A DNA stretch of 64,000 nt. It comes from Hormiphora californensis (Eukaryota; Animalia; Ctenophora). The stretch spans positions 3,596,001 to 3,660,000 of the forward strand of contig CM035361.1 of the NCBI GenBank assembly GCA_020137815.1, written 5' to 3'. Position 1 is the first letter of the stretch. Each line of letters starts with the position of its first letter. Position numbers and translations under genes: made by a program. A model generated the notes under the pieces. That model did not search any database and had not been told where the DNA came from. It saw nothing but the letters and a program-made list of their open reading frames with translations. Positions 25,193 through 52,349 of the stretch are shown piece after piece.

Positions 25193-28100
25193 ATGATACG
25201 TCTCCTTCTCTTCACAGCTGCATTTTGGAGGACAGTTGTTCTGACAGGTTGGTTTTTAGTTAGTCGATAGAATGTTGTTTATAAATTTTATATTTTTTAG
25301 TGGTCAATAATATTTAGTTAGGGGATTTTAGTAATAAAAGGGCCAAGTTTTCAGCAAAATTTTTAACAAGCTAATTTTTTCACCAATAGGTCCGGATAGG
25401 TGTCTAGTATGACCAAAAAAAAGTACACGATAATCGGAAGTGCGCACGCGCGCTGAGCGCACAAGAGGTAAACACATGTAATTACATGTATTTCTAGCCT
25501 GGCACGAAAACCCAAAAACCATCTTAGGAGACGAGTAGAGAAAAAATCAAGGGCACTAGATTGTGTAGCGTCCTCGCATTAGTGGGGGTAGGTGCTGGAA
25601 TTAAGTCTCTATCTCATCTGGTTAATTAGATAATTGGATAATTAGATATGCGCATAACCGTATTTTGGCTATATGGCTATAGCCACTTAGGAATGGTTTA
25701 GAGACTTTTCACTGGTGCCATTTTGTAGGCAATAGCCAAGTTATGGGGGGTCGACGTCGGACGTTTAAGCTCTATCTCCAACCGTTTGGCCGCTATTTGG
25801 CTTAAAAGATGCTCAAAATGAGCAAAAAACGGTAAAAAGCCCGATTTTGAGCATCTTTAAAGCCAAATAGCGGCCAAACGGTTGGAGATAGAGCTTAAAC
25901 GTCCGACGTCGACCCCCCATAACTTGGCTATTGCCTACAAAATGGCACCAGTGAAAAGTCTCTAAACCATTCCTAAGTGGCTATAGCCATATAGCCAAAA
26001 TACGGTTATGCGCATATCTAATTATCCAATTATCTAATTAACCAGATGAGATAGAGACTTAATTCCAGCACCTACCCCCACTAATGCGAGGACGCTACAC
26101 AATCTAGTGCCCTTGATTTTTTCTCTACTCGTCTCCTAAGATGGTTTTTGGGTTTTCGTGCCAGGCTAGAAATACATGTAATTACATGTGTTTACTTTTT
26201 GTGCGCTCAGCGCGCGTGCGCACTTCCGATTATCGTGTACTTTTTTTTGGTCATACTAGACACCTATCCGAACCTATTGGTGAAGAAATTAGCTTGTTAA
26301 AAATTTTGCTGAAAAAATATACTAAAATCCCCTTATTAATTGGTCCATAAAACATAACGTTTTGTAGAGGTTTGACGGTTTTTTGTTTTTCAGACTGGAT
26401 AGCTGTAGAGCGGGATGTGAAGATACCCTGGGACCTGGAGGCAACATCTCTCCAGATAAAGACAGACTCGACACTGGGCAGTGGTGAGATGATCTATGTG
26501 GAGATGTACGATAATGGTGGCAGCTATATAGGTCGTGATGTGCTTGTGAAGTTCTCCTCCCCAATGCAGTATTATATAGCCTTCTGCACCGGCACCTACA
26601 TAGACCTACCAGTGCAACCCCCGGTGGAGGTGGACAAGATCTGGACAATCACCAAAACAGAGTCCGCCCTCATCATCACGTGTAATAATGTGGAGGTGCT
26701 GAACTACCTGTTCGCAGATAGTTCAGATAGCAGCTGTGTTCCAAAGTGGGGTGGTGATGTTGTGGAGCAGATTTTGTTTCACAGTAGTCTTGACACAGCA
26801 TCTGACTTCTACAAAGCAGGTAAATGTCTAAATTTAATTCATAACACTTATAATTAAATTCAAAATTGTATGCATACTGCAGTGTTAACTGTGACAGACG
26901 ACATGTCGTCTGTCACAGTTAACTCAGTAACTGGTTAACAATGAAGTCACCTACTTTTTGGCACCAAACAGCTGACTGTTAATTTATGATACGTTAATTT
27001 CATACCAGGCTGGACAGCTGTAGAGCGAGGTGTGAAGATACCCTGGGACCTGGAGGCAACATCTCTCCAGATAAAGACAGACTCTGCACTTGGTAGTGAT
27101 GAGAAGATCAGGGTGGTTATGTACAACAAGGACAGCAGCTCTATCAGTGAAGTGTATGTGTGGTTCACCTACCCCTCAATGCGGTATTTTATAACCTCCT
27201 GCAGCACCGGCTGGGCAGACCTGTCAGTACAACCTCCAGTTGAGGTGGATAAGGTCTGGACGATCACCAAAACAGATACCGCCCTCATCATCACATGTAA
27301 TGGTATGGAGATGCTGAACCTCCTGTTTGAAGATGGTCCAGATAGCAACTGCGTTCCAAAGTTGGGTGATGATGTTGTGGAGCAGATTTTGTTTCATAGT
27401 AGTGACGCAGCATCTGACTTCTACAGAGCAGGTAAATGTCTAACATAACTTTTATAATTCTATGCATACTGTCACAGTTTAAGGGTACGCCGACTGAAAT
27501 TGTTTTCGAGTGCAGGGCAATCTTTCACCGTAGGGTTGTAGGCCATACCAAGGGGACCTCAAATATGCAATTTTAGCCCCAAAGTTGAATTCATGTTTTT
27601 GCTACAGCCGTTTAAAAAATGTCCCGAAAAGAGGTTTTTGACATCTCAAAAATACATTTTTAGAGATAGGAGCATGAAAATTTGGGGATTTGAAGAGGAC
27701 ATAGAGGTGATTAACCGAAAGAAAAATTTTTGAATCCGAGCAGATTTCTGGTCGTGAGATGGATTTTTTTAATATTACTTTAACGCCCTATTTGGAAAAT
27801 ATGTGAAGGGTGTAAATTGGTGAAAAGTTGCGTCCAACGATTATCTCAGTAGCCATAAATTTTGGGCGTGTCCTTATTTGAGATAAGTAATAAGTTGTAT
27901 ACAGAGGTTTTTTTTGTAAAAGCCGTGTTTTTGAAATTAGAGAAATTCTCTGTATCTCAAAAACAGCTGATGATAGAGACCTAAGAACACTCTTAAACGA
28001 TTTGGAAGGTCCGATTTTTTGGGGGGGGGTCTTTTGAGAGACATTTTCTCCTACTTCAACCGTTTTTGCCGTAATTGTAAAACACAGAAACCCAACTTCG

Positions 28101-31100
28101 CCATCGCAGGATCGACGGGCCGGAGGATGGGACGGGATGGATGGGCGGGTGGTGGGGCGGATGGAGGAGTGGGTGGAGGAGTGGGTGGATGGGTGGGTGG
28201 ATGGGGAGGACTGGGTGGAGGAGTGGGTGGATGGGCGGGTGGATGGGTGCGACCCAAGGCATGGTTAATTTTTAATTCGTGGTGAACTACAACTCTTGTA
28301 GCTTTCCATTACCAATATATTTTCTGTAATGAACTCACACTGTAATTACTATTTCCATTCAGATCAATTTGAGTGTCCTGCTTTCACTGTTGAGGGATCA
28401 ACACAAACAAACTGGCCTGCCTCGACGACAGGGACAACTGTCACCATTGAATGTGTTGCCAACCACATCCTAACGGGAAGTGAAACATTGACTTGTCAGG
28501 ATAATGGATCGTGGTCAAGTGATTTACCACAGTGTGTTGGTAAGTTCATTGAGCACTTTACACTCCATCTTATTCTATAATTGTCGGGTTTGGGAACCGG
28601 AATCGACCGCAACTTTCGTAAAATGCGATATGGTTTTCACACTTCATTAAACTGAACCCTAAGCCGAACTGAACCGAACAAAATGTTTTATAAAGTCGGT
28701 AAAATTTGAGTAATGTTTGTTGTTTTTCAGAGTGGACAGCTAATCCGCGGAATAATGCAAAAATACCCTGGGACTTGGAGAGTACACCTCTCCAGATAAA
28801 GACCGACTCAACAATGGGCAGTAATGAGATAATATATCTCACATTGTCGGGAAGTAACAATTATCATATTAGTGAGATAGTTGTAAAATTCTTCTCCCCG
28901 GCTATTGAGTATCAGATTTACTTCTGTACAGGCTCGCAGTCAACTGACCTGCCAGTACAACCACCGATTGAGGTGGACAAAATCTGGACTTTCACCAAAA
29001 CAGAGACCGCCTGGATTATCACATGTAATGGTGTTGAGGTGCTGAACTACCAGTTCATAGATAGTCCAGATAGCAGCTGTGTTCCAAAGTGGGGTGGTGA
29101 TGTCGTGGAGGGGATCAATTTTCATCACACTGTTGACACAGCATCTGACTTCTACAGAGCAGGTAAGGCTGACGACCATATTAGACTGGAAAGAGCAGAT
29201 AATTAAACTTTTAGTATGGGGAAAACGGTTCCCTAGTAAAGGTCGCGCGGGCAATTATGGTGAAAATTGGCCAATCTACAAACATTAATTCGCGAATCCT
29301 CAACAATATTGGCCAATCTTCGCTGGATGCGCAAATAGATTGGCCAATCTTCGCTGGCCATGGCTGAATTTCACAGCTGTTTCGCGCGCACACAACCCAA
29401 GATAACTGGTTTCGCGCCCCACGTCTATGCCACTCGATGCTCGCCAAATACCCCGGTAAGGGATCAGCCGATGATGCTATTTGAATAATGTTACTTTGCT
29501 GGCAACATGCTTCCAATGAGATTCAATAACATGCAGCAATGTGAATTGAGATGATCCAATTATGAAATGTTACTTTTCGGTAATCTGGTACAGTCTTATC
29601 GGTGCAGTGATACTATACTGATGTTAGGGATCAGAATGATTTGAAAAGTAGACACCAAGAGGATTGCAGAACACCCGGAATTTTGATTTTAGCATAACGG
29701 GAACCATTTCCTCCCCATGGCGCCCTTTTTAGGGACCAAAACGAGGTCAGGGCCAGAGGGTACTCGCGAAATACGGTCTCTGCGCCCCCAGCGACTCTCT
29801 CGACAGACACAAATTGGGTCGAGGAGAGTTAAAACTTCCTCAGAAATATTCAGGTGTTTTTGAATGACCGATATGAAAATTCAATTAAATGATATATATA
29901 CCAACTAAAATTTAAAATTACAAGAGCGGATTTGGCTCAGTTGATAGCAGCTTGTCTGTCACCCTCAGGGCGTCGGGTTCGAGACCAGAGCATCGACCCT
30001 TTTTCCATATTTTTTAAAAACATTTAGGAAATTGGCACAGTATAGTGAATAGATTGGTTCAATCGAAAAATAAGAATGAACTGCCCCATTTAATCCGAGG
30101 AAATCGTGTATAAAATTTGACAAAACATAAAATTTATAGGGGCAATGTAATTCCTTCACTAAATGGTACTAATAGGTCCACCCTACCACCAAACGAAAGT
30201 TTACCAACCAACTCCATGGGGGGAGGTCCGATAATTGGCCTTAATTGGCACCTGTATTTTCAGTATGGGTCCAAAAATATAAATTCTCTTAGAATAGGAG
30301 TAGAGAAGAAAATAAGGGCACTAAACTGTGTAGCGTCCTCGCATTAGTGGGGGTAGACGCCCGTGAAAAGTCTCTATCTCATTTGGTTAATTAGATAATT
30401 GGATAATTAGATCTGCGCATAGCCGTTTTTGGCCATACGGCTATAGCCACTTAGGAATGGTTTAGAGACGTTTCACTGGTGCCATTTTGTAGCCAATGGC
30501 CAAGTTATGGGGGGTCGACGTCGGACTGTTAAGCTCTATCTCCAACCGTATAGCCGTTATTTGGCTTTAAAGGTGCTCAAAATGAGCAAAAAACGGTAAA
30601 AGCCCGATTTTGAGCACCTTTTAAAGCCAAATAACGGCTAAACGGTTGGAGAAATTTAGGAGTTAACCCGGGGCCCCCCATTGGAAAAAAAGGAAAAAGG
30701 GAAAAAAATTTAAACCCTTCCTAAGGGCTATAGCCCCGTATGGCCAAAAACTATTCAATTAAAATTTAATTTTAAAAAAAAAAAGGGGACTTTTTCCCCG
30801 GGGTTCCCCCTAAAATTGCGAATCACATTTTTGCCCTATTTTTTTCCTCCCCTATTTTTAAGAGAAAAAAAACGAAAAACAGGGGGCCAATTAAGGGCCC
30901 AAACCCTCCCCCCCGGATTTGGTTTTGGAATTTTTTTGGGGGGAGGGTGGACTTTGTAAAAGTGGAGAATTACCTTCCCCCTTTTTATGGCCTTTTCCTG
31001 GATTTTTTCAAAATTGCCCTTTTTAAGATTTCTAAACCCCCCCGTAATGGGGGGGAAAGGGAAGGGGGTAAAGGGGGGAAGGGGAAATCCGGGGAAAAAA

Positions 31101-34100
31101 AAAAAAATAACCTCTGAGGGTTTTTTAGGTTTCCCTTTTTGGGGGGAGGGAAACTACCTGGGGCGGGGGAGGGGCGAAAGGGGGAAGCAAAAGGGGGGGA
31201 AAAAAGAAGAGGAGGGGGGAAAAGGGGGGGGTGCGAAAACGCCCCCGCCCCAGGGGAAAAGGAAGAAACCCCCCAAGGAGCAAAAACGGGAAGGAGGGCC
31301 CGGGGATCTATAGGGGGAAAGGGGCCCCCTTCTTTTTTTTCCTTTTTCTTAAATTTTTCCTTCTCCCTTTGGGGCGCCCCCTCTCTCTGCTTTCTTTTTT
31401 ATTTTTTTTTCCCTTAATATTCAAGGGAAAACTCCCCCCGCGTTTGAAAACATTGTTTTTAAAAGTTAAAGGGGGAACTCGTATTGAATGTACCCCCAAA
31501 CCCCTGTTTCTAAATTTTTTTGGCTGAGGCTCCTTCCTCCCCCTTCCGCTTTTCCTTATTCCCCCCTTTCCCCAATTCAGGGCCCCCCCTCATTTCCCCC
31601 TCATTCCCTCTTCTCTCCCAAACTCATTCCCCCTCTCATTCCCATCTCTCATTCCCCCTCTCATTCCCACTATATCCCAATCTCTCACTCCCCCGCTCAT
31701 TATCCCCCTCTCATTCCCCCCTCTTTCCCAAACTCATTCCCATATCTCATTCTCCATCTCCCAATCTCTCATTCCCGGTTCCCCATTTCATTATGCCCCT
31801 CTCGTTATCCCCCTCTCAGGTGTGGTACTGGCTATTAATTATCGCACATTGAGAATCAAGTGTCCTGATTGGCCAGTGCATCTCTATCTCAATTCACACA
31901 TTACGTTCCACGTTTTTTTTTTTTTTTGGATCGTCCCCGTGCTAACATTTGTCACTCCCTGTTACACACCATGTATCCTGGCCATATGTGCCACGGTTTG
32001 ACAGATGTTATTTTCACAGCCACCTGTTTGACCCCGGTAGTGAGGGCCGGAATACTGCCTTTAGGTACCCAATCACTGGTACTCTGCCTAATCATGCTGG
32101 CCATTACCTGTCTGGCGGTGCCGACCCGCTTTGAGTGTCAAAACCCAGGCCTGGCTCCGCCCTACAGGCAGTTACAGTATAAAATCAACCAGGCTTGTGG
32201 GCATAGCGTTTGACGGTACAACCTTAATGCACTTTGGTCTTTGCAGCACAGATGTGTATAGTTTGGGGAATGAAGCGGGCAAGGGCAATGTTCGTGATGC
32301 TTCGTTATCGGTCATGAGTGTCAAGGAGTGAGCGCCGTATGCTGTTCATGATTGTATTTTGTGTTCATGCATCGTGGTATTAGGCTCAGGGGATAGGGAA
32401 AGAAAAAAACACAGAGAAAGAGAGAGAAAGAGAGGGAGCTGGCTCCTATAAACGTACTTTACGTACTGTTGATAGCGAGAGAGAGAGAGAGAGATATATA
32501 GAGAGAGAGAGAGATAGAGAGATATATAGAGAGAGAGATAAATAGAAGAAGGGTTAACAGAGCCGACCAATGAAAACTGGAGACCTACTGCAGCGGACAA
32601 CCTTACCATCCCCCACCCAACCCAACAGAACACCCCAACCCCAAGGAGTAGCCTAATTACTAATTAGGCAGAAGTAGCCCCCAAAGCCCTCCATTCTCCA
32701 ACCGATCTACTGAGGCCAGGGAAGGAATCATTGGTCGACTCTATACGCAAGGAAAGCAAGACTTGGTTAGCAAGCAGATGTAATGTATGAAGGTGCGTGC
32801 TGGATAACTAAGTATGTACTTATGAGGTGATTGCATGGTATGATAACTTTTTATGGATGGACTATACTACAGGATATCGTCTCCCATAATATGGCTCACC
32901 CGAGAAAGATAATAACTCCAATTAACCCCATCCCACACACCAGATATCGCCCCCCCCCCCCCCGTTGTGATCGTGAGATAGGCGTGAGATGAGAGAGACA
33001 GACAGTGAGAGAGACAGAGAGACATCAGACAGTCGAGGGAACCCCGCTCCAGGAAGGTGACGAAATAGAAGCCGGGTCCAGAGTGAAGAACCCAATTAGA
33101 CCTCCAGTGCCAACAGCGATGATTATCTCCACATTCCAGGAAGACCTCCATTAAGAAATTACGGGATGACATCCAAAACCCCCTTGGAGAATGGAGAAAA
33201 AGGTGATGAAAAGGGATCGGCAGGAGAGATAAAGATGAGAGAGACCGGCGATAGAGAAGGAGACCAACGAACTAGAAGATATGAAATAGAAGACAACCAC
33301 GAGATCCAGAGTGACGAAACTGCTACTGGTCCCAACTAGAGAGAGAACCCCTGATCCGAAGAAGAACCGTAACTGGAAAAGACCTATCTAATCCAAGACA
33401 AGACGAAAACTCCGGGAGCCGAGAGAAAAAAAAGGCAGCGGAGAAGAAGCTGTCGCCACTGGCCCCAAGAAGGCAACTAGAAACAGAAATAGTGCCCACT
33501 GTGCGTGAACTGCACAGGAGATGAGCATTGGGAACGAGGAAGCACCTGGAAAATGGGTGGTTGATTGTGATAAATACAATAGATATATATTGTGATCCTG
33601 CAACATGTTTGGGTTAGGTGGAGAGTGAGAGATCTTTACCTCTTTCTCGCACGGGAGAGATGCCCTGTGAATGAAACCCGTATTCGGATCGGTGTTAGTG
33701 AGTAAGGTGGGACTAACCCAGATCCCCCTCCCCCACACCAAGAGCCCCCTTGCCCAGCCCCTGTCCCTTAGCCAAGCCTCTCTAACTGCCAACCTACTGG
33801 CCCACACGAGGCCCCAGTCCCCACGGAAACACAACTGCGGGAACCCCACACGGCACACTTAGCCTACACTAGCCCAATACAACCGGAGGGTACGCAGACC
33901 TGACTAGGAACGGGAAACAAGAAAGGGAGGGACTAAGGAGAGGCCAGAGGAGCAGAACCAAAGAGTACAGCTAGGACCAAGTGCCTAAATACAAGAACTG
34001 AACAACTATAAAAAACTCCAAAAAAATACGTGCGGGAGCACGAACACAGAGACAGGCAACACAACCTAATGCCAAATACTCCCCTACCCCGGCACGTGAA

Positions 34101-35222
34101 ACACGGTCAACAATGATACCCGAACTGACAGGACAGAAGACACCCTAGAACTGTGAACAGGCAACTATGAACTATGAAATTGACAACAACAATTACTGAA
34201 ACATACATAACAAGACAATGAATAAATGAATATTGAATAACAGAATGAACGATCTTATCTGATAGACGATTGTAGGTAAGCGTTGTAGTTGACTGGTCCT
34301 TTGTTGTTATTGCTGGTAGTAGTTGAAGCTAGCTGGACTTGGTTCACCGTGGTAGACAAAGTGGTGAAATTCGAGAAGGCCGGGAGAGGGGGAGAGATCA
34401 CCCGCACAATACAAGAGAGAGCAAAACACGAAGTGCACGTTCCACGTTATTGTATGTCACGCTGATACCTTCACGTGATGGAAAAGAGAGGTCGATGTTG
34501 TAGAAAAGATCAAGTTTAGCAGTACTGATGACACAGCATCTGACTTCTACAGAGCAGGTATAAAGGGCAGTGCTGTTTGTAGTGGGAATATTAATACGGC
34601 GTCTGAATAATATGATATTTGACGTATAGTGGAGAAACCAGGAACCGACCGAAACAAGTAAACAACCAATCAGAGCTCGTTATTTAGTTCACATGACTGG
34701 TTATCAGCCAATCAGGGACCAGTATTACCTGATTCGGTCGGTTCCTGGGAGAAACCGTGTCCAAACACCGTGCATAGACGCACCGTTTGTGTAACACGCG
34801 GGTAATAAAGCACACTTTTTCAGCTAGATCAGGATGAACATGTGTTTATTGCCAGCGTGCTACGTAAAGTGTGCGTCTGCGCACGGTGTTTCGACACCGT
34901 GTCTCCACTACCAACGACACTGTATCAGCAGTTTGGTTCAAATAAAATGAACGAAAATCCAAGCTTTCCATGACATATCATGTACCTGCATTTTTCAATG
35001 AACTCACAACATTTAGTATTTACTATTTCCATTCAGAGCCAATTGTCGAGTGTCTTGCCTTTACTGTTGAGAGATCAACACAGGGAAACTGGACTGCCTC
35101 GCCAACAGGGACATCTGCCACCATCGAATGTGCTGCCAACCATATCCTTGTGGGGAATGCAACACTGACTTGCGACGATGATGGAACATGGTCAAGTGAT
35201 GTACCACAGTGTGATAAAATTG
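25193..35222 (+). CDS. Secreted modular protein A: signal peptide, IPWDLE domain x2, sushi, IPWDLE domain, disrupted IPWDLE domain, sushi
   Basis: Exons 25193-25247 (MIRLLLFTAAFWRTVVLT), 26394-26819, 27009-27431, 28363-28539 (sushi C..C..C..W..C), 28731-29162, remnant ~34479-34557 (...DTASDFYRA), 35037-35222 (sushi). All junctions are phase 1. The 3' end is unresolved and the region could hold two genes. Confidence 0.8.
25321..26332. mobile_element. ~1-kb palindromic MITE, PIF/Harbinger-like, in intron 1 of gene A
   Basis: TIR GGGGATTTTAGTA, TTA on both flanks, arms ~480 bp nearly perfect. Related sequence at ~30300-30760. Confidence 0.85.
27483..28085 (+). mobile_element. Single arm of the Kolobok-like foldback family at 1-1211
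   Basis: TTAA|GGGTACGCC start; high similarity to 1-420 and to the reverse complement of 610-1211. Confidence 0.8.
31915..34436 (-). mobile_element. ~2.5-kb non-coding poly(A) retroposon insertion
   Basis: 12-bp direct repeat ACGTTCCACGTT at 31903-31914 and 34437-34448; poly-T at the left end; no recognisable ORF. Confidence 0.7.
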
Positions 35223-36550
35223 GTAAGTTCATTTAGTAATTTCTAATACCGTGATCTTCCTGCTTATTAATTAAGCAAACAACATTAAAACTTCATGAAG
35301 CCAATTGTTATCTTACCATATAAACCTAAAAAGGTAACAACTTAGATATCTCCACTACAAGAATAAGCTCGTGTAAAAAACTTTTTCTTTCATCAAGAAC
35401 TGTTGAACTAAAACTTCCTTGTTTTACTTGGAAACCCCAAATATATTGATTTTCTGATCGGTGTCGGTAAGAACTATTATTAGTCGATTATTAATCTTAA
35501 TATATAGTTTAATATAATTAATATTAACTCGGATATGTCTTTGTTTATTAAGGGACGCTAGTGAAAATGCCCAACAGATAATGATCTTCTGGAGCGTTTA
35601 ACAATTTTCGTTAATTATTTATAGTTTCATGCTTTTTACAGCGATCTCAGTTATTAATAAGTTATAATTTTTGCAACCCTGGCCTAGTAGGGAAACCATT
35701 CGTTCATTCAGGTCACGGCTATTTACGCCTGAGACCTGAGATGTCAGGGATGTTCTTGATCTTGGCTATTCCCTAAAAATTTCCCTGAAATCTCAGGGAA
35801 TAGATTGGGCGGTAGGCGGACTCTAGTGCTAACGGACTCTATATCTAAACCCAAGGAGGACTCTATATCTAACCCTAACCTTTACACTAACCCCTAACCT
35901 CGAACCCAAATAACAGCCCTAACACTTCTAAACGAGTATAGAGGCACAGCAAACTCTCGCTTCCGGCCTAAGGGCCGAAATCTCGAGTTCGCTTTTCGTG
36001 ATTTTAGCACTAGAGTCCGCTTACCCCGACGTCCGCGGTGGCAACTTCGCTGCGAAGGGAATAACCGTCACTGAGATCTGAGGTCATATGCATAGTGGTT
36101 ACCGATTCGATGAAATACAGTAAGAATACGCGCAAGCAACATATCGCTAGAACGCTTTCGTATGACAATTGCTGCCGCCTTTTACAAGTCTTTTACGTGT
36201 ATTTTTGCTGACTTTGTAATGATCAGTGAGCCAATGCGCGAATATATCAAATAATGATGCATGCATGCGTTCTACGCCAAAGCTGCAGTATAGATGTTCT
36301 ATCCGTTAATGGACACTTATTATAGAAAACAGATCCAGTATAATGACAACAACATATTTCCAAGTACCAAACTTGTGTTTTCCTTGTTTTTATATATCTT
36401 GGTAGGAGTATGACTTTTATAGACATCCGTTTCTTGCACTATAATCCAAACCCGGACTTAATTTTTAGTCTCTCTTTAATGATTTCAATGAATATATTTA
36501 ACTATTGAATACAAGAAAAAACTTTTTATGCTGCTGGAATGATAACTTAC

Positions 36551-36730
36551 CAATTTCATTACACTGTGGTGCATCACTCGACCAAGATCCATCCTCCTGA
36601 CATGTCAGCGTTCCACTTCCCACTAGGATATGGTTGGCAGCACATTCGATGGTCGCAGTTGTCCCTGCTGGTGAGGCAGTCCAGTTTACTTGCGTTGATC
36701 CGTCAATAGAAAAGGCTGGACACTCTGGTG
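36551..36730 (-). CDS. Sushi/CCP exon of the same modular family (parent gene unresolved across the gap)
   Basis: ttccattcag|..PECPAFSIDGSTQVNWTASPAGTTATIECAANHILVGSGTLTCQEDGSWSSDAPQCNEI|gtaagt; phase 1-1. Confidence 0.85.
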
Positions 36731-37783
36731 CTGAATGGAAATAGTTAAAGTTTATAAGGCTATATCCTGCAGCAGTAGGTCTATTTAGGGTCTATGTACA
36801 TGTCGGTCCTTTATCGGGAGAAAACTAACTTATCTACTGTTCCCCCTACTGTTTCCCTATGGCACTTTGCACTAAATGAGCAAAGTACCATAGGGGCCAG
36901 GGGGAACAGTCGTGCCTAAATCTCAGGTTCAGGCACAACCCTAGTAAAGGTCGCGCGGGCAATTATGGTGAAAATTGGCCAATCTACAAACATTAATGCG
37001 CGAATCCTCAACAATATTGGCCAATCTTTGCTGGATGCGCAAATATATTGGCCAATCTTCGCTGTTATTCAGAACGCGCAATTGTAAAGCCGCGCTAAAA
37101 AATGTTAAAGCCGCGCAAAATTATTTAAAATGCAAGCCTGAAAGTCGCGTTGGATGCACGGCAACGGTTACCACAATGCAAGGAAACTTCTGTGAAACAT
37201 CTCACCTTCCCTTTCTAACCCTATCGCCAATTGCTACCCCCTTTCCCGTGCTGTAAACCTTTTGTAAAACATCTTACCTTCCCTTTCTAGCCCTCTCGCC
37301 AATTTCTACCCCCTTTCCCGTGCTGTAAACCTTTTGTAAAACATCTTACCTTTCCTTTCTAGCCCTATTCTACATCCTTCCTGCAGCTTTCTCTCACCTG
37401 TTAATCGTGGTTTCATCCCCCTTCATGGACACTCTTTCTTCTCAATCTGGGTTCTGCTGGATTTCCTTCTACGACCCTCCTGCGGCTTCCTCTCACCTGT
37501 GGTGTTTTCACCTATCTTCCCTGTGATCTTCTCTCCCCTCCTACCGCTTTCTCTCATCTGGTCATCATGTTTTCACCTCTCCTTCCCTGGGTGTCCTCCA
37601 CGAAACTAAATTCAGTTTAGTGTTGAAATTATTTAGAACAAGTTAGGAGCGACTATTATTTCGCTAAACTTTAGAAAACCGTCCACGAACAACATGTTTC
37701 GGAGCTTGGTCCGATCCACGTGATCTGAGGGTGTTATACATGTGATAGAATGCGACACACAATGGGCATGCACTCTCTCTTTT

Positions 37784-37883
37784 NNNNNNNNNNNNNNNNN
37801 NNNNNNNNNNNNNNNNNNNNNNNNNNNNNNNNNNNNNNNNNNNNNNNNNNNNNNNNNNNNNNNNNNNNNNNNNNNNNNNNNNN
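37784..37883. other. Assembly gap (100 N)
   Basis: Run of N. Contiguity and orientation across it are unproven. Confidence 1.
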
Positions 37884-38079
37884 TATTGTCTAACTTGGTA
37901 CAAGCGGCATACCAGATCAACACCAACACCGCGTGTGAAGTTTCTCTTTCAGAATATCAGACCTTTCTTCTCCATCCGGGACAAGTGCATTCTAATCCGG
38001 TCATACAAAATAACTCGCAGACTGCAGTGCCGCTAACATCTGTAGCGGTGAACATGATAAACTCAGGTTTATTACCACA

Positions 38080-39167
38080 CAGACAACAGTGAAAGCCACG
38101 CAACTCACATTCGATTATAAAACATAACATGACTACCGACAAACATGCATAGTGGATCAGCTGACAGTTCAGCTGATGCCACAATATTAATGAGGAGTTT
38201 TATTATTAGTATTCACCATTAAAAATCGGGAGCATCGACTGTCTGAAACACATCTTTGATGAAACGACGGAGACACCTGTCTCCGTTGGAGCCGGGATGA
38301 CGAGGTAGCTTTCCCCGCCAGCTCCTCTACCCGCACGCCCAGCCATCTGGAGTAACGACTCGGCAGTTTTCGGATGCTTCTGCAGTAGCACATAACGGAC
38401 TCCTGGATTATTAATAATTCTACTTAGGGAACATTAATTTGCAATTCTTCGTAACATCTAATTCATCAATTTCTTCCTATAATATTATCTACATAAGACA
38501 CATGATATAAATTATAACTGTACACATACATTATATATAATGTGTCAGACACATGATATAACATACCGACACAATCCACTCCCATGGATAGTAATGGCGT
38601 AGTGATGACAACCCTCAGCTTTCCGTTAGGAGATAGCAGGTCCTCTACAACCCTCTCCTTCTCCTTCTTTGTACTGATCGCTGTCAGGAGAGTTATCGAA
38701 CAGTCCACGATTCCTCCAGCTATGTCCTGTGCGATTATTCTTGGGTTAGGTACTCTCATTTCATTAGAGCGATAAAATTTTGAAAACTGAAAAGGGTCGT
38801 TGCTCAGTTCTCACTCATATCGTAATTCATAGTGTGTACGTGCCATGTGAGCCACAGAGAGCAATTGGAAATTGCGCTTTGGCATTAAATACGTAAGTAA
38901 GATAGGTAAGGTGATGACCTACTGGCCTACTCAGTACTCAGCATGTAACAATTACCTCATATACACGTAACACTCTCATTGCATCGTTCGTATCCCCACA
39001 GAAGATCATTGCCCGTGCTTTGACTGTGGCTTCTTTGAAGATGGCCTCGTGGTGATGCCTTAGCAGTCTATCCACAAAAACCACACTCATCTGCAACTTA
39101 ACAGGGTTCCTGCCAAAAAGAAAGTAGACGTTGGAAAAGGAGAGAGAGAGAGAGAAGAGAGAGGAAG

Positions 39168-39219
<52 letters not shown>

Positions 39220-39761
39220 TAGAGAAGAGAGAGAGTCATATAGATCTGATCGCGAGATCTAGAGCTACTATAGAGCGAGAGAGATCGCGATCAGTCTAGC
39301 GAGATAGAGAGAGATTGAGAGAGATGAGAGCTCGATAGAGATCTCGCCCACGGAGGCTCTCCTCTCAGGCACGAGAGAGAGACAGCGACAGCGACATAGC
39401 AGGGAGGGGTGGATAGGTAAGTAAGATGTAAAATCTGTAACTCACATGAAAAATTAAAATCTGTACTCGAAAAACACGTTTGAAACGAACACGATTGACA
39501 GCGTTTGAAAGTGAGGAAAGGAAAATTGCTTCACAATAAATGCCAGTCTATTCAACATTCTGATCAACGTACTGATTTGACTGTCAGTGAGAATAAAAAT
39601 GTGTGTGTGTGTGTGAGAGAGAGAAAGTGAGAGAGTGAGAGCGACAGAGACACCAACTGAGGATCATTGAGTATCAGATCCCACATTTCACCCAGTAGTC
39701 CACTGTGCGTGATGAGATCCCCCAGAGAAATTGAGATGGGAGAGAGAGAGGGGAGAGAGAG

Positions 39762-39821
<60 letters not shown>

Positions 39822-42073
39822 GAGATGGTTATAAATATGTACATATATATATTATATACCGATTACTGAGAGATACCCGTTGGGGTGATTCGCTACACCA
39901 CTATTATATACTATTTAGTTTTAGCGGCAAAAACATACATGCTTTTTATAGCGGGGTATATCAGACAAATTTTCGCCCGCTAATATTATAATGCATTAAA
40001 TATATTATGACCATAACCCATTGACATGCTTGGAAAATTATTACAAGAAGTGAGAGCGGAAAGTGCAGTGGTATGTGCAGTCATTCGGCATACAATATAA
40101 TATATAGCAGCGTGCTTCATGTAACTCACCAATTCCAATGTCATATTAAACGTATTCTGGGTAATGTTATTAAGATACACGTGATATAGATGCCTCTCCC
40201 CCAGCTGGACAGGAACAATAGGGGGATTGATTTTCAATTGTATCGACAAATTATTAAACTAACTGTGATGAATTATATATAATCAATACTAAAGGGAGGG
40301 GGAGGCAAGTCCAAAAAATCCAGATTAATTCAATGCCGCGGGTGTGTGCCTCCCTACATTTCAGTGATCATGGACCTTTTTGGGGACCAATAGCCACCAT
40401 TTGCTCGAGTGGAGGTGAAATAGTTACCTGGTAACACAGTAACAATCGGTGATGCCTAGGTACTTAAAAAGGCGGGTCTGGTTATCGCTTGTTAACGTGG
40501 CTGTGAGGCACAGAACTTGAGGGCGAACCTGTGAAAGATGATTTGATTAAGAAATGGCTCGGGTGAGAAGGCAGAGCGGGTAAGGAAACTCTAAAAGGCA
40601 TTATATGATGTAGAATTGAGATGTACACAAGAGCATGTTGTAGCACCAAAAGATGTGTATAGGTATAGTATGTAGATTGTAGCGAAAATAGTACCAATTT
40701 TGCAAGGATTTCGTCAAGGTTCGTGAAATCCTTACGGAAGCTGGCCCACTCCAAAAGTGAGTGACATTCATCAAAGACCACAAGTACCCTCTTTCTCTTT
40801 AAACTGACTAGTATCTGTTAAATAAATAGAGAGGTTGATTTGTAACATCTAATCAGCAAAAAGTGAATTAACTAGACTTAGTGTCAACACTTTTCTATAA
40901 CATACCGACTTGTTCTTCAACAGTGCTTCTGGTGAAGTTACGAGGCATTGCACCCCAGACCCAGTTAAATTTAGGCTTTCCGACAGCCCCAGCTCCTGGC
41001 ATGTTATCCCCATCTACAAAAAAAATTAATGTTGCCTGTTTTCGGTAAGTTTACTTTTACTGACTATTGTATAATACTCCATATCAAAGCTATGTTTATT
41101 GTTTACCCTGTTTCCGAAACATGGTAACAGCACGGTTTGAAAATATACCTCATTCAGTTTCTTTATATGGCCCCTGTTGATTGCCAGGAGTGGTGTGACT
41201 AAAATCGTCACCATCTCTGGCACCCCCACCGCAAAGGCCAAATAAATTAACGTTTTTCCACTTCCTGGAGCGATATAACGTTTCAGTGCATGCCACGGGC
41301 TTACAAATGTCATTGTGTGTTCAGAAATATACTTCATTGTGTAGTGTACGTCTTATCAGAAGATAATTACCTGTTGGGGCCACACAGCAAACAGATCTCC
41401 CACAACACAGTTGCTTCAGACACTCACGCTGGGTTTCCTTCAGAATGTATCCTTTTTTCAGGCATTCTTGAATACAAACTGAAAGAGAAAAACAATTACT
41501 TTTGAACCAAATATTAATTGTCTGGGCTTTTTTAAATATACCATTGAATGTCTGTATTTGAGGAGGTGTTGGCTGAGGTGTGGGAGCGGGTCGAGGAGGT
41601 GTGGGAGCGGGTCGAGGAGGTGTGGGAGCGGGCCGAGGAGGTGTGGGAGCGGGCCGAGGAGGTGTTGGAGCGGGTCGAGGAGGTGTGGGAGCGGGCCGAG
41701 GAGGTGTTGGAGCGGGCCGAGGAGGTGTGGGAGCGGGCCGAGGAGGTGTGGGAGCGGGCCGAGGAGGTGTGGGAGCGGGCCGAGGAGGTGTGGCGGTACC
41801 AGGCTGATCAGGTGTGGGAGCGGGCCGAGGAGGTGTGGCGGTACCAGGCTGATCAGGTGTGGGAGCGGGCCGAGGAGGTGTGGCGGTACCAGGCTGATCA
41901 GGTGTGGGAGCGGGCCGAGGAGGTGTGGCGGTACCAGGCTGATGAGGTGTGGGAGCGGGCCGAGGAGGTGTGATGGGAACCACTGGTCGTGATTTACGGC
42001 GGATGGTCGGTAAGGGACATAGTGCACTCATGCATTTCTCTTTTGACCGTCGGACAGGACGTGTGGATGCCAT
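38080..42073 (-). CDS. Divergent RecQ-type SF2 helicase, multi-exon, Pro-rich N-terminus; possibly transposon-borne or decaying
   Basis: Spliced motifs: Q motif (LKETQREC), APTG|SGKT (41371/41264), VTPLLAI, VTSPEAL, VVFDECH...WASFRKDF, CLTAT, AMIFC, VITTPLLSMGVD, QMAGRAGRG, and Zn-module CFRQSMLPIF...CCLC. The frame could not be joined cleanly between ~40430 and ~39110, and the 3' end is approximate. Confidence 0.85.
41560..41972. repeat. Coding minisatellite (21-bp TPPRPAP and 45-bp units) in helicase exon 1
   Basis: Unit lengths are multiples of 3 and lie within ORF 41321-42073. Confidence 0.9.
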
Positions 42074-45000
42074 AAACTGTACGGAGTGAATAAGAAATGA
42101 ATACTATTCACTAAATAGTAAATGTTATAAAAAAACATCAATGTACATAGCAGTGTACCATGTACACAGTCGGTGAACATGGAATATGCATGATCTGACC
42201 GGTCATGACCAGGAATGGAGTTCGTATTACTCTTGCCAGCTGTGCAGTGTCCAATTCGTGCAAATCAGCTGAATGGATCAGATCTGCAAGGAGAAGTCGC
42301 TTATTCGTCATTCGTGGTGGTTAAAAGTTGATTTGGATTTAATTTTATGCTTTCAGTAGTCATATTTTTCAAGTGGGGTGTATAATTCATTAGTTTAGAG
42401 GAACCCGAATTTGTGGGGTGTACCATGGGGTATGTGTTGGGACACGGAGAAGTTTAGATCAACGGGATCATTTATTCAGAGGAACACATACAGAATGGCT
42501 GCATAATTCACCACTCCTGGCACACCCCACAAGTTCCTGACGATTTATAATATCATTGCAACAAAAGTCAATATCACTCGATAAAAAAATTAAAATACAA
42601 GCACATACAGTTGGACCGGGATCCTCGGGGGAAGGGTTTTGCCCGGTAAATCGGGGTGCCCGGTATATCGGGGTCAAATACCGTTATTTTCCCATATCGG
42701 GGGAAGTTTATCCTCCCGGTAAATCAGGGTTCTGGTAAATCGGGGTCCGACTGTATATGAATTCGTACATATTATAGAACTACAATTTTATTTTTTATTA
42801 TTGACGGTTTACACAGCAGATAAAAGAAATACAACCTGGTCCATGAGTCATGGACCATGACCCTATACACTATAAATAACAACAGTTCGGAGTTAAGCTT
42901 AGCTATTCTACTACTCGAGTTTTGCTACATAACTCAGGTCTAACAACTTGCATAGAAAACACATTCAAAACGTTAACTCTGTCTTGGGTGGTCCCTCAAA
43001 TATATAATAATTATACAGATTTGAGGCACTAAATCATTAGTGTGATTGCAGGGTACATAGGTCACGGATTTCATCACTTCAGAAGGTTACACGGGTCACG
43101 GAGTTCATCACTTCAGCAGGGCACACAGGTCACGGGGTTCACCTAGTCTGGACGGGAGAGTGGCTTCTTAGTAAATACAATTAAATTGTTGCCTTCGTTG
43201 ACATGTTCCGAGTCTATCAACTCACACAGCGGGCCGAAGGCTACGCAGTTTGTCCATTTGTCGGGTCAAGCTGAAAGACTGGGAACATGTCAAGGTGTGA
43301 GCTTGTGAGATGCTCAAGCTTTTGATTGTTTGATATATCGCCAAACGAAAGCATAAAATTTGTGAATGCGTATTCCATGATATGTCAACGAGTTGCCATG
43401 CTACGCAGTCTGTCCTTTACTTGCGAGGAAGTCAATCAACGAGCCACTGTTATACCACGCACGAGCTACTATAACACACACAACTCGATTTGTGCATAAC
43501 CTGCGACTTGCCTTGATATTTTTGTTGTGGGTTTAAAAGTTTGTCTAGAGTGGCCTCACGAGTCACGCTCAACGATCACAGAACGAAGATTAACAGTTTT
43601 GCTTTCAGATTTCAGATTTTCAAAAAGAAAATTTTGAATATCGGCTTCCGAAAAAGTCCATTCGGCCCCCTTACTCGCGTATGCTCACACCGGGCCTTCG
43701 GCCTAGTGTGAGAGCTGACAGACAAGGAACATGTCAAGCAACGAGCCAATGTTGTACCACGAACGAGCTACTATAACACACACAACTCGATTTGTGCATA
43801 ACCTAAAATTTACCTTGATATTGTTGTTGTGGATTTAAAAGTTTGTCTAGAGTCGCCCCACGCCCAACGATCACAGAACGAAGATTAACTGTTTTACTTT
43901 CAGATTTCAGATTTTCAAAAAGAAAATTTTGAAAATCGGCTCCCGAAAAAGTTTTTTTTTCAAAATTTGGTGAAAACGGACAAAAACGGTCGCGCGCAGC
44001 TGCGCGGCGCTAGAAACAGAGCGTGGGAAACAGCGCGACTGAGGTATTGCGCGTTCCAAATCGTCCCTAGACGCATGGCTGTCCGAGGCGCTTAAGTGCC
44101 GATAGACAGACTGCGTAGCATGGCAAAATATAGCTACCCTACCAGAAGTTAGACTAACGTGGACATCGTCAAACGAATGTTTAACGATCGATATCGATCG
44201 TTTTAGTCGGTCGCTGGGCCAATCTGGGCGACCGATCGACCAGACAAAATCGATCGACGGACGATCGACGGACGATCGGTTTCAGTGCGCGCGTCGCTAT
44301 TGGAAACATATGAGTTGCGCCATAGAACTAATATCTAGAGCTCCGCGCGTTACTGCTATGTCCCCAATAACAACAAAGTCATGAGTTGGACGCTGGCGGC
44401 ATGTGCGTCTGATTAAGTCCCTAGCTGTACGTCCAGATCACTACTTATTTTGATTCAAATCAATCGAAACTAGATGTGCTTTGCACTTATTCAAGATAAC
44501 ACTATCACTTTTTTTTTCAGGTGAGTAAGAGCTGCTGAAGCTATATATAGTACGTTCATTGTCCAAGATTCAATTCCTAGCTGTCAATCAGTTAATTAAT
44601 CTATAGGATTGAAATATTGTTCATACATAATATGCAGTATCCTAGCATAATTTTACATAACAATTGTTCGATCTCGATTCGATCTCTAGGTAATAACTAA
44701 GGATCGAAATCTCGATTTTGAAGAAATCGAGAAGAATCGCCGGTTCCTAATAACTTCACACTTCACTCATTGTTTTGACAACTTCACACTGTATTTCATA
44801 TTGGTCTGGAAGCTTCCACCCAATAGATACTTATAATACATCTCCCTCCTCCAATCCTCTCACACTCCCTTGATTCATATTCGTCTTTTAAAATGCAGAT
44901 TATAATTACTTCTTCAAGATCAGCTGCAATGTCCAATAAGATTACTCTCCAGTAGATATATAATGAGAACCTTCGTACTGCAATACCCTGTAATGAAAAT

Positions 45001-46390
45001 AAAAGTTCAGTAATAAAGATATTGAGTAGTGACCAGGAACCGACCGAAACAAGTAAACAACCAATCAGAACTCGTTATTTAGGTCACGTGACTGGTTATC
45101 AGCCAATCAGGGACCAGTATTTCCTGATTCGGTCGGTTCATGCAAAATATAGTGTGGCGGTGGGTAGCTCACCGTTTCTGTTTTGACATGTTTCACCTTC
45201 TTCCATCACCAAGTCCACTCTCTAGGATTCTCTTAGGATTCGATATCTGAAAAGTAGAAAACAGAGTTAGTGTTTGTGTGGGCTTACACCAATCAGATTG
45301 TAGCGAGAAGCGTAGCTTATTGTTTTACTATTTCCAGCAATATCTTAGTATCAGGAACCGACCGAATCAGGAAATACTGGTCCCTGATTGGCTAATAACC
45401 CATCACGTGACCTAAATAACGAACTATGATTGGTTGTTTACTTGTTTCGGTCGGTTCCTGCTTAGTATGTATTATGGCATTACAGCCGTGCTTAGAGATG
45501 ATGTTGGATTTAGTCATACAGTGATACGATATGTATTAATATTATTGGGAAAAAGAAGGGCCATATATAGCTGGGTGACCCGCAACATGTAAACACAGTT
45601 TCATTGGTTATTACAGTCGGACCCCGATTTAGGGACACCCTGATCGGGGAAAGGCTCTTGTCCACTAAATCGGGGTGTCCACTAAATCGGGGGCCCCTAA
45701 ATCGGGGTCCGACTGTAGTAACCAATAAACCCGGGTTTGTATGTAGCGGGTTATTTGCAGCTAGGGTGATTCACTAAAATAAACTGCCTGCGACCTAGTA
45801 CAAAGCAGGTGCAGTGGTATAAAACCTGACCATTATATAGGGAGGGGGTTTATTGATTATATAGGCCAACATAAATTTGTAACTTATATCTGAGTTATTA
45901 AGACTATCAAATTATATTTGCTCATCTTAAAAAAATGTAACACCTCAAGAAAATAACAACCCCTAATTTTAGGGTTTCTTATTAGACGAAATTCATTTTA
46001 ATAAATTTTCGGAGTTGATTATTCTTGAATTATTTAAAATTTAAAATTTACAATTATACTTTTTTAATTATTTTTATATTTCAGAAAAAAGTTTTTCATT
46101 TAAAATTTTTGGATTTGCTTATTCTTGAATAATTTTAAAAAAAGATTTAGTTTCTAATTTAATATGGGAAAGGCTGGGTGCATGGTCGATATTATATTCA
46201 ATTATATTTTAGCTGTTTTAACCCATACTATACTCTGAATTACCTACCGCGCCTCTCTATTGCAACGATCCGAGCTAATTAAAAACAGAAGAATCCTCAT
46301 CCAGTCTCGTGCTTGTTGTTGCAATCCCATCATTTCAAACGACGTGTTGATGGGGAAAACTGTATGATTGTGAAGTGCAATTTCACTTAC

Positions 46391-48402
46391 CAATTTTATC
46401 ACACTGTGGTACATCACTTGACCAAGATACATCATCGTTGCAAGTCAGAGTTGCACTTCCCACAAGTCTATGGTAGGCAGCACATTCGATGGTGGCAGTT
46501 GTCCCTGTTGGTGATGCAGTCCAGTTCCCTTGTGTTGATCCCTCAACAGTAAAGGCAGGACACTGAGGTTCTGAATGGAGATTTAGTAATAGGGGGAGAC
46601 ACACTGAAGTTGAGCGCGCTCGTTCAAATCTCAACCTCGCGACACACACAGAAGTTCGAAGTTTCGCGAAACCCCATTTTCGACTGAGAAAGGGGGGGGG
46701 GCCGTCACCTTTTTTTTGCCCATAAAAAATCGTGGGACTTTGGGCAAACGTGGGCAAACGTGGGCAAACATGGGCAAAATGAAATTTTCAGTGTTATACT
46801 TATATGTCGTTTTTTCAGCTCTATAACTTGATTTAACTTATTCAAAGTGAAAGTGAACAGCCCTGATTTTGATATAACTCGGTCAGAATGGTATTTGGTG
46901 TCATATTAGAAGTCAATAAAATTTTAGTGCTCAAATCCTAAGTTTAGGATTTTTAGGTTTTTAGGTTTTTTGGCTTTCATGGGTTTCAGAAACGTCCTAG
47001 AATAAAATAAACCCATAAAAGCCTAAAACCTTTAAAAAATTTTAAAAAATCATAAATTTACGATTTGACCACTAAACAATTTTTAGACTTCTAATGTGAC
47101 ACCAAAGACCATTTTGCCCATTTTTGCCCATATGGGCAAAACCAAATTCGCTGGGATTATGGGCAATGGGCAAAAAAAGGGTGTCGGGCCCCCGCCCCCC
47201 TGAGAAACCATTTGTAAGATGCTAACTTAATTACCGGTACATCTCTCGAGGTCTCCTTTATCCATACCGAGTCGATTTCACCGTTTTTAAAAATTTTGGT
47301 GAATTGGGACAACTGTGACCGAATTAGCCAAAAATTTTAAAAACGGTGAAATTGACTCGGTATGAATAAAGGACACATCGAAAGATGTACCAGTAAATGA
47401 GTTAGCCTCTTACAAATGGTTTCTCAGCCGAAAATGGGTTTTCGCAAAACTTCGAACTTCGAACTTCAGTGTGTGTCGCGAGGTTAAGATTTGACTTCAG
47501 TGTGTCTGATTTCTCAGAGCACGCGATGTTTGCGATTTCAGGGAATAGCCGTCACTGAACTCTGAAATCTCAGATTTCAGTTGTAAACAGCCGTAAAAAA
47601 GGCACGACTGTTTTCCCCCAATGTGGACTAATGAATTATATGGGACTTTATAATTGTGGTGTTCAGAGAAAAATAACGAAAAATTACGACTTCAAAGTTA
47701 ATCTTTGGGGGGAGACATGACAGTCGTGCCAGTCGGCTATTTTCCACTGAAACCTGAGATCTCAGCTGGTGGCCTTTACCTGCTCTGTAGAAGTCAGGTG
47801 CTATATGACTATATTTAAACACGATCTCATCCACATCAGCGCCCCATCTTGGAACACAGTTGCTATTTGAACTATCTGCGAACAGGTACTTCAGCACCTC
47901 AACACCATTACATGTGATTATGAGGGCAGACTCTGTTTTGGTGATCGTCCAGATCTTATCAACCTCAACCGGGGGTTGTACTGGCAGGTTTGTCCAGCTG
48001 GTGATGCAGTGGCCTACCACATACCGTATTGGGGAGGAGAAAATGACACCCACATTACCGATATAGCTGCTGTCCTTGTCGTTCGTGGACACATAGATCA
48101 CCTCATCACTGCCCAGAGTAGAATCCGTCTTTATCTGGAGAGGTGTTGCCTCCAGGTCCCATGGTATATTCACATTCCACTCAGTAACAGCTGTCCAGTC
48201 TGAAAACAATATGTACTAACCACTAAGAAAATTTATCGCATATTTAATTAACCACAAAGCATCAATCGATTTGTGTAAGAGAGGAAGTGAGATTAGCAGT
48301 CAGAGAAGATATTAAAAATCTTGTTCCGATAAAATTATGTGACCAACCTGTGAGAACAACTGTTCCACACAATGCAGCTGTAAGGAGAAGGACACGTATC
48401 AT
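46391..48402 (-). CDS. Secreted modular protein B (paralogue of A): signal peptide, IPWDLE domain, sushi; 3' end unresolved
   Basis: Exons 48402-48348 (MIRVLLLTAALCGTVVLT), 48199-47780, 46570-46391; phase-1 junctions. Confidence 0.85.
46597..47507. mobile_element. Palindromic MITE carrying a nested G-tract-TIR element (46692-47199)
   Basis: Outer arms GACACACTGAAGT/ACTTCAGTGTGTC; the inner element is flanked by a CTGAGAAA duplication. Confidence 0.7.
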
Positions 48403-48926
48403 GTTAACACACATATCACTAAATAAATGATGGTGTTTACTTTTTAAAACTATTAAGTGCTTAGAAATACATATATGTATTATACAACTATGCGATGTCG
48501 ATAAGTTGCATTTACAGTTCTGTGAGTGTCGGTATACCGCCTGTAATAACTTTCTTTTTTCACCAAATTATATCTATGAGGTGAAAATAGGTTAAAACTA
48601 CCAATATTATAAATTTGCAATAAGACAGCAATAATTAGGGCGCGATCACACCAGGATCTTCGAAACAATTGCTTCGAAGATCCAAGCTGAAACACACAAA
48701 AAAGTTTGGTTGATTCTTCAAATTAGCAGGCGTTCAGTTGTGCGCGGCGCATTGGTACGTGCTACATGGGTGCTGACAGGACTTTACATGTTGACAAGGG
48801 TTGGGTGCAGGGGCTTCCCTCCTAGTCGGTGTGCCATCATAATTTAGATCCGGTCGCCCATTACCCCGGGGTTCGGTAGAAACAAGGTAGTGGAGATGAG
48901 GTAGAGAAGTGACGACACACGGATTT

Positions 48927-48969
48927 TAGGAAAGTACTTTCGTAGATAAAGTCTACATCATCAGTCCTA
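48927..48969 (-). ncRNA. Minimal type-I hammerhead ribozyme (inverted pLTR copy)
   Basis: Exact reverse complement of 52240-52282. Confidence 0.85.
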
Positions 48970-51939: not shown

Positions 51940-52239
51940 TGTTTCTTATTGTTTAGACACAGGGATGTCTGGTTTGAGGTGACAGTGTGTGCGAGTTGTA
52001 ACGCGCGGTGTCGCACCTGTGTGGCCCTTGGCGCCGTGTTTCTGTGTTTAGCTGTGCGCGGCGCCCTCTGCATACATTGACATCTCATTCAGAATCCCTG
52101 ATTTCGCGAGCGTGCTTAGTTTTTTAGTTAGTTAGTGGTTCTCCTTTGTTGTTTTGGATAGCTCCGTTCGATTTTTTCCTCGATTTATATTTATATTTTT
52201 ATCTCCTGAGAGTGTGTGCTCTAACATTACATATTTTTA

Positions 52240-52282
52240 TAGGACTGATGATGTAGACTTTATCTACGAAAGTACTTTCCTA
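52240..52282 (+). ncRNA. Minimal type-I hammerhead ribozyme in the PLE pseudo-LTR
   Basis: TAGGA-CTGATGA-T-GTAGA(CTTTA)TCTAC-GAAA-GTAC-TT-TCCTA: conserved core, stems I and II, palindromic stem III. Confidence 0.87.
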
Positions 52283-52349
52283 AAATCCGTGTGTCGTCAC
52301 TTCTCTACCTCATCTCCACTACCTTGACTTTACATGTTGCAACATGTAA

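Follow-up and report, generated by a model that had tools for sequence, protein, structure and literature searches.

Invertebrates are known to possess diversified repertoires of lectin type. Among their diversified recognition families, snail FREPs, C1q-domain proteins of bivalves, VCBPs of amphioxus and oyster bindin F-lectins are secreted, modular products of multigene families, with a hypervariable binding surface under selection. Galectins, which typically lack a signal peptide, carry a canonical sugar-binding motif on the S-face of their sandwich (H-x-N-x-R, W and E-x-R, contributing His, Asn, Arg, Trp, Glu and Arg). The galectin sandwich has eleven strands, of which b1, b10 and b3–b6 make up the S-face, where sugar is bound, and b11, b2 and b7–b9 make up the F-face (PMC5877766). 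In the vertebrate proteins LGALSL and LGALSL2, the galectin fold is combined with a conserved F-face, proposed to bind protein partners, and with a poorly conserved S-face from which the beta-galactoside-binding residues have been lost (PMC13696195). The present analysis concerns two genes, A and B, in a stretch of 64,000 nucleotides of the ctenophore Hormiphora californensis (contig CM035361.1, positions 3,596,001–3,660,000; hereafter the window, in whose own numbering all nucleotide positions are given). Both genes encode sushi modules together with a domain of about 140 residues that is predicted to adopt a galectin-type fold; in this domain the putative S-face is hypervariable and under positive selection, whereas the F-face is conserved.

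The exons assigned to the two genes are as follows (D, domain exon; S, sushi exon).

25193–25247, + strand: gene A exon 1, signal-peptide-like, phase 1 (55 nt); the same N-terminus occurs in 15 homologous models
26394–26819, + strand: D1, domain exon of about 140 codons, phase 1-1 (426 nt); predicted galectin fold
27009–27431, + strand: D2, domain exon, tandem copy of D1 (423 nt); the downstream intron sequence is common to D1 and D2
28363–28539, + strand: S1, sushi/CCP exon, phase 1-1 (177 nt)
28731–29162, + strand: D3, domain exon, phase 1-1 (432 nt); groups with the third domain of the homologous protein P0123 and with P0138 (support 99)
46570–46391, − strand: S4, sushi exon of gene B (180 nt)
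48199–47780, − strand: D4, domain exon of gene B (420 nt)
48402–48348, − strand: gene B exon 1, signal-peptide-like, phase 1 (55 nt)

The order is signal–D1–D2–S1–D3 in gene A and signal–D4–S4 in gene B, exons beyond these being unsure; spliced, gene A has 566 codons and gene B has 218, and neither contains a stop. AG/GT boundaries are found at the exons, and 8/8 complete modules are a multiple of three in length and in phase 1-1, as claimed in the preliminary description of this DNA, whose inventory of four domain exons of about 140 amino acids, one domain remnant, four sushi exons and two signal-type exons was located in full (the remnant and the sushi exons S2 and S3 are listed further below). 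The two 55-nt signal-type exons, judged by eye and by homologous models, are 87.5% identical to each other. D2–D4 are 67–69% identical to D1, with three Cys per domain. The framework, earlier described as nearly invariant, is so only in part, CVPKW being exact in two of the four domains and DFYRA in three. All four sushi exons match Pfam Sushi (PF00084) with its four Cys, at 35–39 bits against a curated cut-off of 20.7; a Pfam scan of the four domain exons gave 0/4 matches to any family at E ≤ 1, in keeping with the earlier statement that the domain could not be assigned to a named family.

The fold was approached through predicted models. AlphaFold2, run on an alignment of 123 sequences, gave an all-β sandwich with one short helix and a mean predicted local distance difference test score (pLDDT) of 94.8. 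The Foldseek list for the D1-type model consisted almost entirely of galectins (best E 3e-5, template modelling (TM) scores of 0.5–0.6), and in a VIA-align comparison with 48,161 chains ranks 1–18 were all galectin-type, the best being the C-terminal carbohydrate-recognition domain (C-CRD) of galectin-4 (Z 10.4, root-mean-square deviation (rmsd) 3.3 over 126 residues), with model residues 1–141 matched to chain residues 187–323 collinearly from end to end. A Mnemiopsis member with 47% identity, modelled from a different alignment, was again galectin-type (Z 10.1); across both models the values are Z 10.0–10.4 and rmsd 3.2–3.5 over 126–129 residues, and both are predicted to form the galectin-type 11-strand sandwich with a six-stranded S-sheet and a five-stranded F-sheet. 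These results support the galectin/ConA-like β-sandwich that had been suggested from the letters of the DNA. A first Atlas search returned only bacterial and phage ConA-like look-alikes, and a viral fold library returned generic ConA/galectin domains. From collinear strand order against galectins, rather than from model coordinates, the S-sheet strands of D1 would be residues 10–11, 32–38, 44–52, 58–61, 69–70 and 125–128, and the F-sheet strands 19–23, 81–87, 91–96, 99–105 and 138–140.

Variability was analysed in 158 non-redundant close domains, taken from 263 near-complete ones, and in 80 distant domains. Mean entropy in the close domains is 3.09 bits at 18 S-exposed positions, compared with 0.90 bits at 13 F-exposed and 0.70 bits at 26 core positions (p = 1.6e-6). 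The comparison of whole S- and F-strands, without a choice between inward and outward residues, gives 2.18 versus 0.69 bits (p = 2.4e-6), and the distant domains give 3.27 versus 2.12 bits. Entropy alternates along the S-strands, with 3.6, 1.0, 3.7, 1.3 and 4.0 bits at D1 32–36 and 0.3, 3.5, 0.4 and 3.6 bits at D1 126–129. The single variable segment of the preliminary description is indeed variable, but residues 60–67 and 127–131 of D1 vary too; the latter lie 70 residues from that segment, on the neighbouring strand of the same predicted sheet, and therefore provide an independent check of the face model. The S-face strings are distinct in 158/158 domains, with Tyr as the commonest residue (12%), followed by Lys (11%), Gly (9%) and Trp (6%). 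Among 11 sister pairs, 43% of the S-exposed but 13% of the F-exposed positions differ. These values support the earlier proposal that one exposed face varies: on the predicted fold the S-exposed class is hypervariable and the F-exposed class is conserved, and the variable positions are placed by prediction on the concave S-sheet (b1, b10, b3–b6).

Selection was examined with GY94 site models, implemented in code written by the authors, on the four window exons (139 codons) and on a second set that was not used to define the site classes. The second set consists of six exons of five metagenome loci forming one close set, loci that were more distant, partial or interrupted by a stop (L003) being left out. 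For the window exons, the comparison of M1a with M2a gave a doubled log-likelihood difference of 13.7–15.9 on three topologies (p = 0.0004–0.001), M2a placing 8–9% of sites at a ratio of nonsynonymous to synonymous rates (omega, or dN/dS) of about 6.5; M8a versus M8 gave p = 3e-4, and 0/56 simulations under M1a reached the observed value. The second set gave p = 1.4e-9, with omega 2.9 at S-exposed sites versus 0.5 elsewhere. At S-exposed sites omega is about 3 in both the window and the second set, and at F-exposed sites it is 0.13 and 0.32; when sites were chosen from distant homologues only, the window value was 2.2 (p = 0.001). The sushi control (four exons, 54 codons) gave omega 0.48 (p = 0.69). 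The earlier suggestion of diversifying selection is supported by p values of about 0.001 for the window and 1e-9 for the second set, and variation is not spread evenly at low dN/dS but lies on the S-face with omega above 1. Gene conversion alone was rejected as the cause: it does not explain the pattern because fourfold sites have diverged to a similar extent in the variable block and in the framework (12/28 versus 62/204 in the window; 34/122 versus 129/492 in the second set) and a test for recombination did not reach significance (p = 0.11 and 0.85). Positive selection on the binding surface of a multigene family, by which a diversified immune repertoire is recognized, is present here in so far as the modelled S-face is that surface.

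On these models the domain is galectin-like in fold and not a galectin by membership. It has in common with galectins the predicted 11-strand sandwich, the size, the strand order, the occurrence of single- and tandem-domain forms and an aromatic residue at an S6-like position (113/158 domains). It differs in its low sequence identity (4–13%) and in the inverted conservation, with a variable S-face and a fixed F-face. H-x-N-x-R was found at the S4 columns in 0/158 close and 0/80 distant domains (0/238) and anywhere in the domain in 1/263, and W-x-x-E-x-R in the S6 region in 0/263. In contrast to galectins, the ctenophore domain occupies one exon, contains three Cys, is fused to sushi modules and follows a signal-type exon, both gene A and gene B starting with a hydrophobic exon of this type. 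Deep domain profiles compared with PDB sequences retrieved no galectin at E ≤ 10, and Pfam and PDB sequence searches with the domain gave nothing; no characterised family was matched by sequence. Membership in the galectins was rejected on the absence of the sugar-binding motif and of profile similarity. The vertebrate LGALSL and LGALSL2 proteins are similar in their conserved F-face, variable S-face and lack of beta-galactoside residues; however, they are single genes varying between species, whereas the ctenophore family comprises dozens of paralogues per genome under positive selection, built as multi-module, likely secreted proteins. The best named eukaryotic look-alike in a language-model comparison is Methyltransf_FA (PF12248; CPAMD8 and many invertebrate proteins), which is of similar size (score 0.91; 136/256 features; 9/30 matches); the 136 features are fewer than the 170 typical of same-family matches, which makes it a lead only, and PF12248 is not among the first 25 Pfam families listed for 123 and 78 family members. 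The invertebrate repertoires mentioned at the outset use another scaffold in other lineages. The novelty of the ctenophore family lies in its lineage and scaffold, and in a conservation that is inverted within a large group of paralogues.

The two window genes are members of a large ctenophore family of symmetric exons with likely secreted products. A search with D1 retrieved 184 proteins of similar length (120 of them listed), a profile search retrieved 52 longer ones, and a search with a divergent member retrieved five; an exhaustive profile search gave 1,343 clusters (50% identity, E ≤ 0.001), the best 150 of which were examined. Among the matches listed, the species-named records are all ctenophore (at least 60 Pleurobrachia bachei models, at least 11 Mnemiopsis leidyi models and at least five Bolinopsis microptera loci), by which the family belongs to ctenophores, and many further matches are marine metagenome proteins. 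The copy number is not low: 59 of the 60 named P. bachei models contain at least 77 domains (of at least 100 positions), with one to five per protein. The window domains fall among those of P. bachei and the lobate domains cluster apart (support 93, FastTree); the highest identity of any retrieved protein to a window domain is at most 77%. The partner modules in homologues are extracellular, namely sushi, TSP1, Ig, PAN and Cys-rich modules. In 10/304 proteins there is a hydrophobic stretch located beyond residue 40, which is C-terminal in 6/10, several being like the signal for a glycosylphosphatidylinositol (GPI) anchor; P0172, P0175 and P0271 are likely GPI-anchored forms. Fourteen P. bachei homologues, 52–73% identical to D1, are named 'Putative secretory peptide' (-1, 15, 20, 26, 39, 40, 41, 43, 47, 50, 51, 52, 54 and 55; UniProt M4H series).

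A protein-pattern scan of metagenome contigs gave 254 pattern matches and no relative; a degenerate DNA pattern on metagenome contigs gave 12 loci (L001–L012), 12/12 of which are related. A phase-1 AG lies directly before the first Trp codon in 13/13 of the metagenome domain hits and a phase-1 GT donor is present in 10/13, so that distant relatives, too, retain the module as one exon. In principle, modules of symmetric phase can be skipped as well as shuffled; shuffling, in line with the earlier view, is supported by this conservation together with the varied layouts of homologues. Eight Bolinopsis isoforms of one locus are 957–963 amino acids long, with no whole-module skipping among them. 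One added run for expression matched only repeats and a 38-base piece and was uninformative. In L003 the family exon is interrupted in frame by a stop close to its 3′ end, which fits a turnover of pseudogenes.

Our tentative reading, to which we give slightly less than an even chance, is that the family is a lineage-specific, diversifying lectin-like repertoire whose members bind foreign ligands through the positively selected face and are probably defensive. It builds on direct observations, namely how the exons are structured, how large the family is, the division of positions into hypervariable and conserved ones, and an omega above 1 at the variable sites; secretion, ligand and tissue are what we infer. 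The concave S-face would bind microbial or parasite surface glycans or proteins, each paralogue with its own specificity; tandem domains would provide avidity and sushi modules would act as spacers, and the conserved F-face may pack against a constant partner, such as an effector, or against a neighbouring module. In mucus or body fluid the proteins, some of which would carry a GPI anchor, would serve as agglutinins or opsonins, and the repertoire would turn over in the germ line by exon duplication, shuffling and loss. In a bolder form, possible but on balance doubtful, the family would be an antibody-like germ-line repertoire on a galectin-fold scaffold, with dozens to hundreds of secreted or surface-anchored binders that combine a constant effector face with a hypervariable binding face and are diversified by exon shuffling and perhaps alternative splicing; it would then be the main means of pathogen recognition of the earliest-branching animal lineage, missed by Pfam surveys and partly mislabelled as neuropeptide precursors.

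The reading as a repertoire of foreign-ligand binders has to be set against several points. Prey capture or gamete recognition would account for positive selection as well as immunity does. Because the domain lacks the canonical galectin residues, sugar binding is not assured and a protein ligand is possible; a Z of about 10 would indicate a shared fold and not ancestry. The S-exposed class was drawn after the entropy table had been seen, and the table included the four window domains (4/158). The samples for the site models are small (four window exons and six exons of the second set). For whole S-strands, inward residues included, omega is 1.3 and not above 1 (p = 0.23 and 0.16). The top selected sites fall in the S-exposed class in 5/7 cases in the window and 5/14 in the second set, most of the others lying in adjacent loops, and multi-change codons, which can inflate omega, are commoner at S-exposed sites.

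The main rival, which we consider unlikely though deserving of attention, is a prey-capture adhesive released by colloblasts or other tentacle cells, which would grip varied prey and be driven by an arms race with them. Ctenophore-specific genes, signal peptides, and annotations as sushi or lectin are over-represented among the colloblast candidate genes (PMC6278862). The named members, from Pleurobrachia, Mnemiopsis and Bolinopsis only, all come from tentacle-bearing genera, and multivalent secreted binders would suit a glue; a glue, however, would be expected to bind broadly rather than paralogue by paralogue, and some members end in GPI-type hydrophobic tails. It is rather improbable that the variable face is a self-side recognition code, in which labels for cell identity, neuronal wiring, gametes or allorecognition bind endogenous partners, although many specificities on a constant scaffold, the likely GPI-anchored forms and the omega above 1 often shown by reproductive proteins would fit such a code. 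Among 304 proteins no membrane helix with a cytoplasmic tail is evident, except in one likely chimeric model, and species-specific turnover would be unusual for a developmental code. Furthermore, ctenophores including Pleurobrachia are described as fusing readily across individuals, because of which allorecognition appears to be the weakest of the immune, adhesive and self-recognition roles (PMC11565835).

Two further explanations concern the nature of the proteins themselves. They could be lectins of the matrix, serving to cross-link sulfated polysaccharides of the animal itself, the variable face being under relaxed constraint and not selection; the Lys and Arg content of the S-face (18%) and the species-differing polysaccharides of the mesoglea, sulfated polygalactose for M. 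leidyi, polymannans for P. pileus (10.64898/2026.02.02.702917), are in its favour. This is distinctly improbable: omega is significantly above 1 within single lineages, unlike relaxed constraint, and 'galect' is absent from the main text of the same preprint. The deposited name of the 14 P. bachei homologues would make them neuropeptide prohormones, which is highly improbable. One compact globular domain is predicted, the core and Cys positions are invariant, and 7/14 of the named entries have no dibasic site, a Gly-dibasic site being present in 1/14 only; on these grounds the prohormone reading was rejected.

The preliminary description saw two convergent paralogues. Their detailed layout is uncertain in view of a scaffold gap and a garbled stretch between them. 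The features of this part are as follows.

29231–29356, + strand: 126-bp repeat, copy 1, within the intron that follows D3; may be a DNA transposon's terminal repeat
About 30650–31600, no strand: garbled homopolymer-rich stretch that extends a foldback element; likely assembly junction
34494–34557, + strand: 3′ remnant of a domain exon, 22 codons and donor; its 5′ part was not found within the window
35037–35222, + strand: S2, sushi exon (186 nt); DNA 87% identical to S4 of gene B
36730–36551, − strand: S3, sushi exon (180 nt); may be gene A's actual last exon, lying in an inverted block
36939–37064, + strand: 126-bp repeat, copy 2, 98% identical to copy 1 and in the same orientation
37784–37883, no strand: 100-N scaffold gap separating gene A from gene B

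Because the gap and the garbled stretch (30.65–31.6 kb) separate genes A and B, S2, S3 and the remnant may have been placed in the wrong gene. The homologue P0123 has the layout D–D–S–D–S, and its third domain groups with D3. The best match of S3 is the last sushi module of P0123 (83%; 103 bits versus 100 for the next), and the two have a common read-through past the donor, yet S3 lies on the opposite strand. The two 126-bp copies have the same orientation and no inverted partner; flipping the block of 31.6–37.8 kb would turn them into inverted ends flanked by TT, would put S3 after D3 as in P0123, and would make S2 and the remnant face the direction of gene B. A tree of the sushi exons lacked resolution on this point. 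With somewhat better than even probability, judged from these sequence features, the block between the garbled stretch and the gap is an inversion or a mis-oriented contig.

The G+C content of the window is 42%; repeats are abundant, and the 100-N gap is the only one. The foldback (palindromic) element lies at 25390–26300 in the first intron of gene A, and its second copy (30287–30652) continues into the garbled sequence. A dispersed repeat of about 110 bp occurs at 4948–5058, 8694–8768, 21435–21496, 23421–23531, 34636–34747, 45032–45145 and 45352–45463; its translation is found inside the P. bachei models P0157, P0212 and P0229, which therefore include repeat sequence. Outside the two genes, 14556–15719 (− strand) is a fragment of a reverse transcriptase of the long interspersed nuclear element (LINE) type (Pfam RVT_1), and 54940–56112 (+ strand) is a Gag-like open reading frame with a zinc knuckle. 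A 435-codon open reading frame at 49816–51120, by eye a Penelope-type reverse transcriptase with a GIY-YIG tail and with no Pfam match, is flanked by a perfect 673-bp inverted duplication, the whole region spanning 48883–52326. A Cys-rich open stretch of 85 codons at 18448–18702 (+ strand), with no Pfam match, is possibly an exon of another extracellular protein.

A literature search found no description of the family, although supplements outside that search (the mesoglea preprint's tables from Foldseek and the PMC11797021 tables) may mention single members. The survey of ctenophore immune repertoires was built on 20 Pfam domains, and 'galectin' is absent from its main text (PMC11797021); as the family has no Pfam match, it is invisible to surveys of this kind. 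For P. bachei, 72 putative prohormones or secretory peptides have been reported (quoted in 10.1101/2021.03.31.437758 and tabulated in PMC4685580), with no homology to known neuropeptides (PMC4406211), and the UniProt series 'Putative secretory peptide' presumably corresponds to this set. The 14 entries of this name are direct homologues of the window domains, deposited as candidate peptide precursors with no domain or fold in their records. If the series is the set of 72, about a fifth of that set would not be neuropeptide precursors, and the place of these 14 entries in a folded family bears on the debate about neural origins. In conclusion, the family shows the statistics that mark a binding surface in an arms race, and it provides testable candidates for the recognition of microbes or the grip on prey by comb jellies, possibly the sister lineage of all other animals; its small, stable sandwich, tolerating near-random residues on one predicted face, would be a natural binding scaffold.

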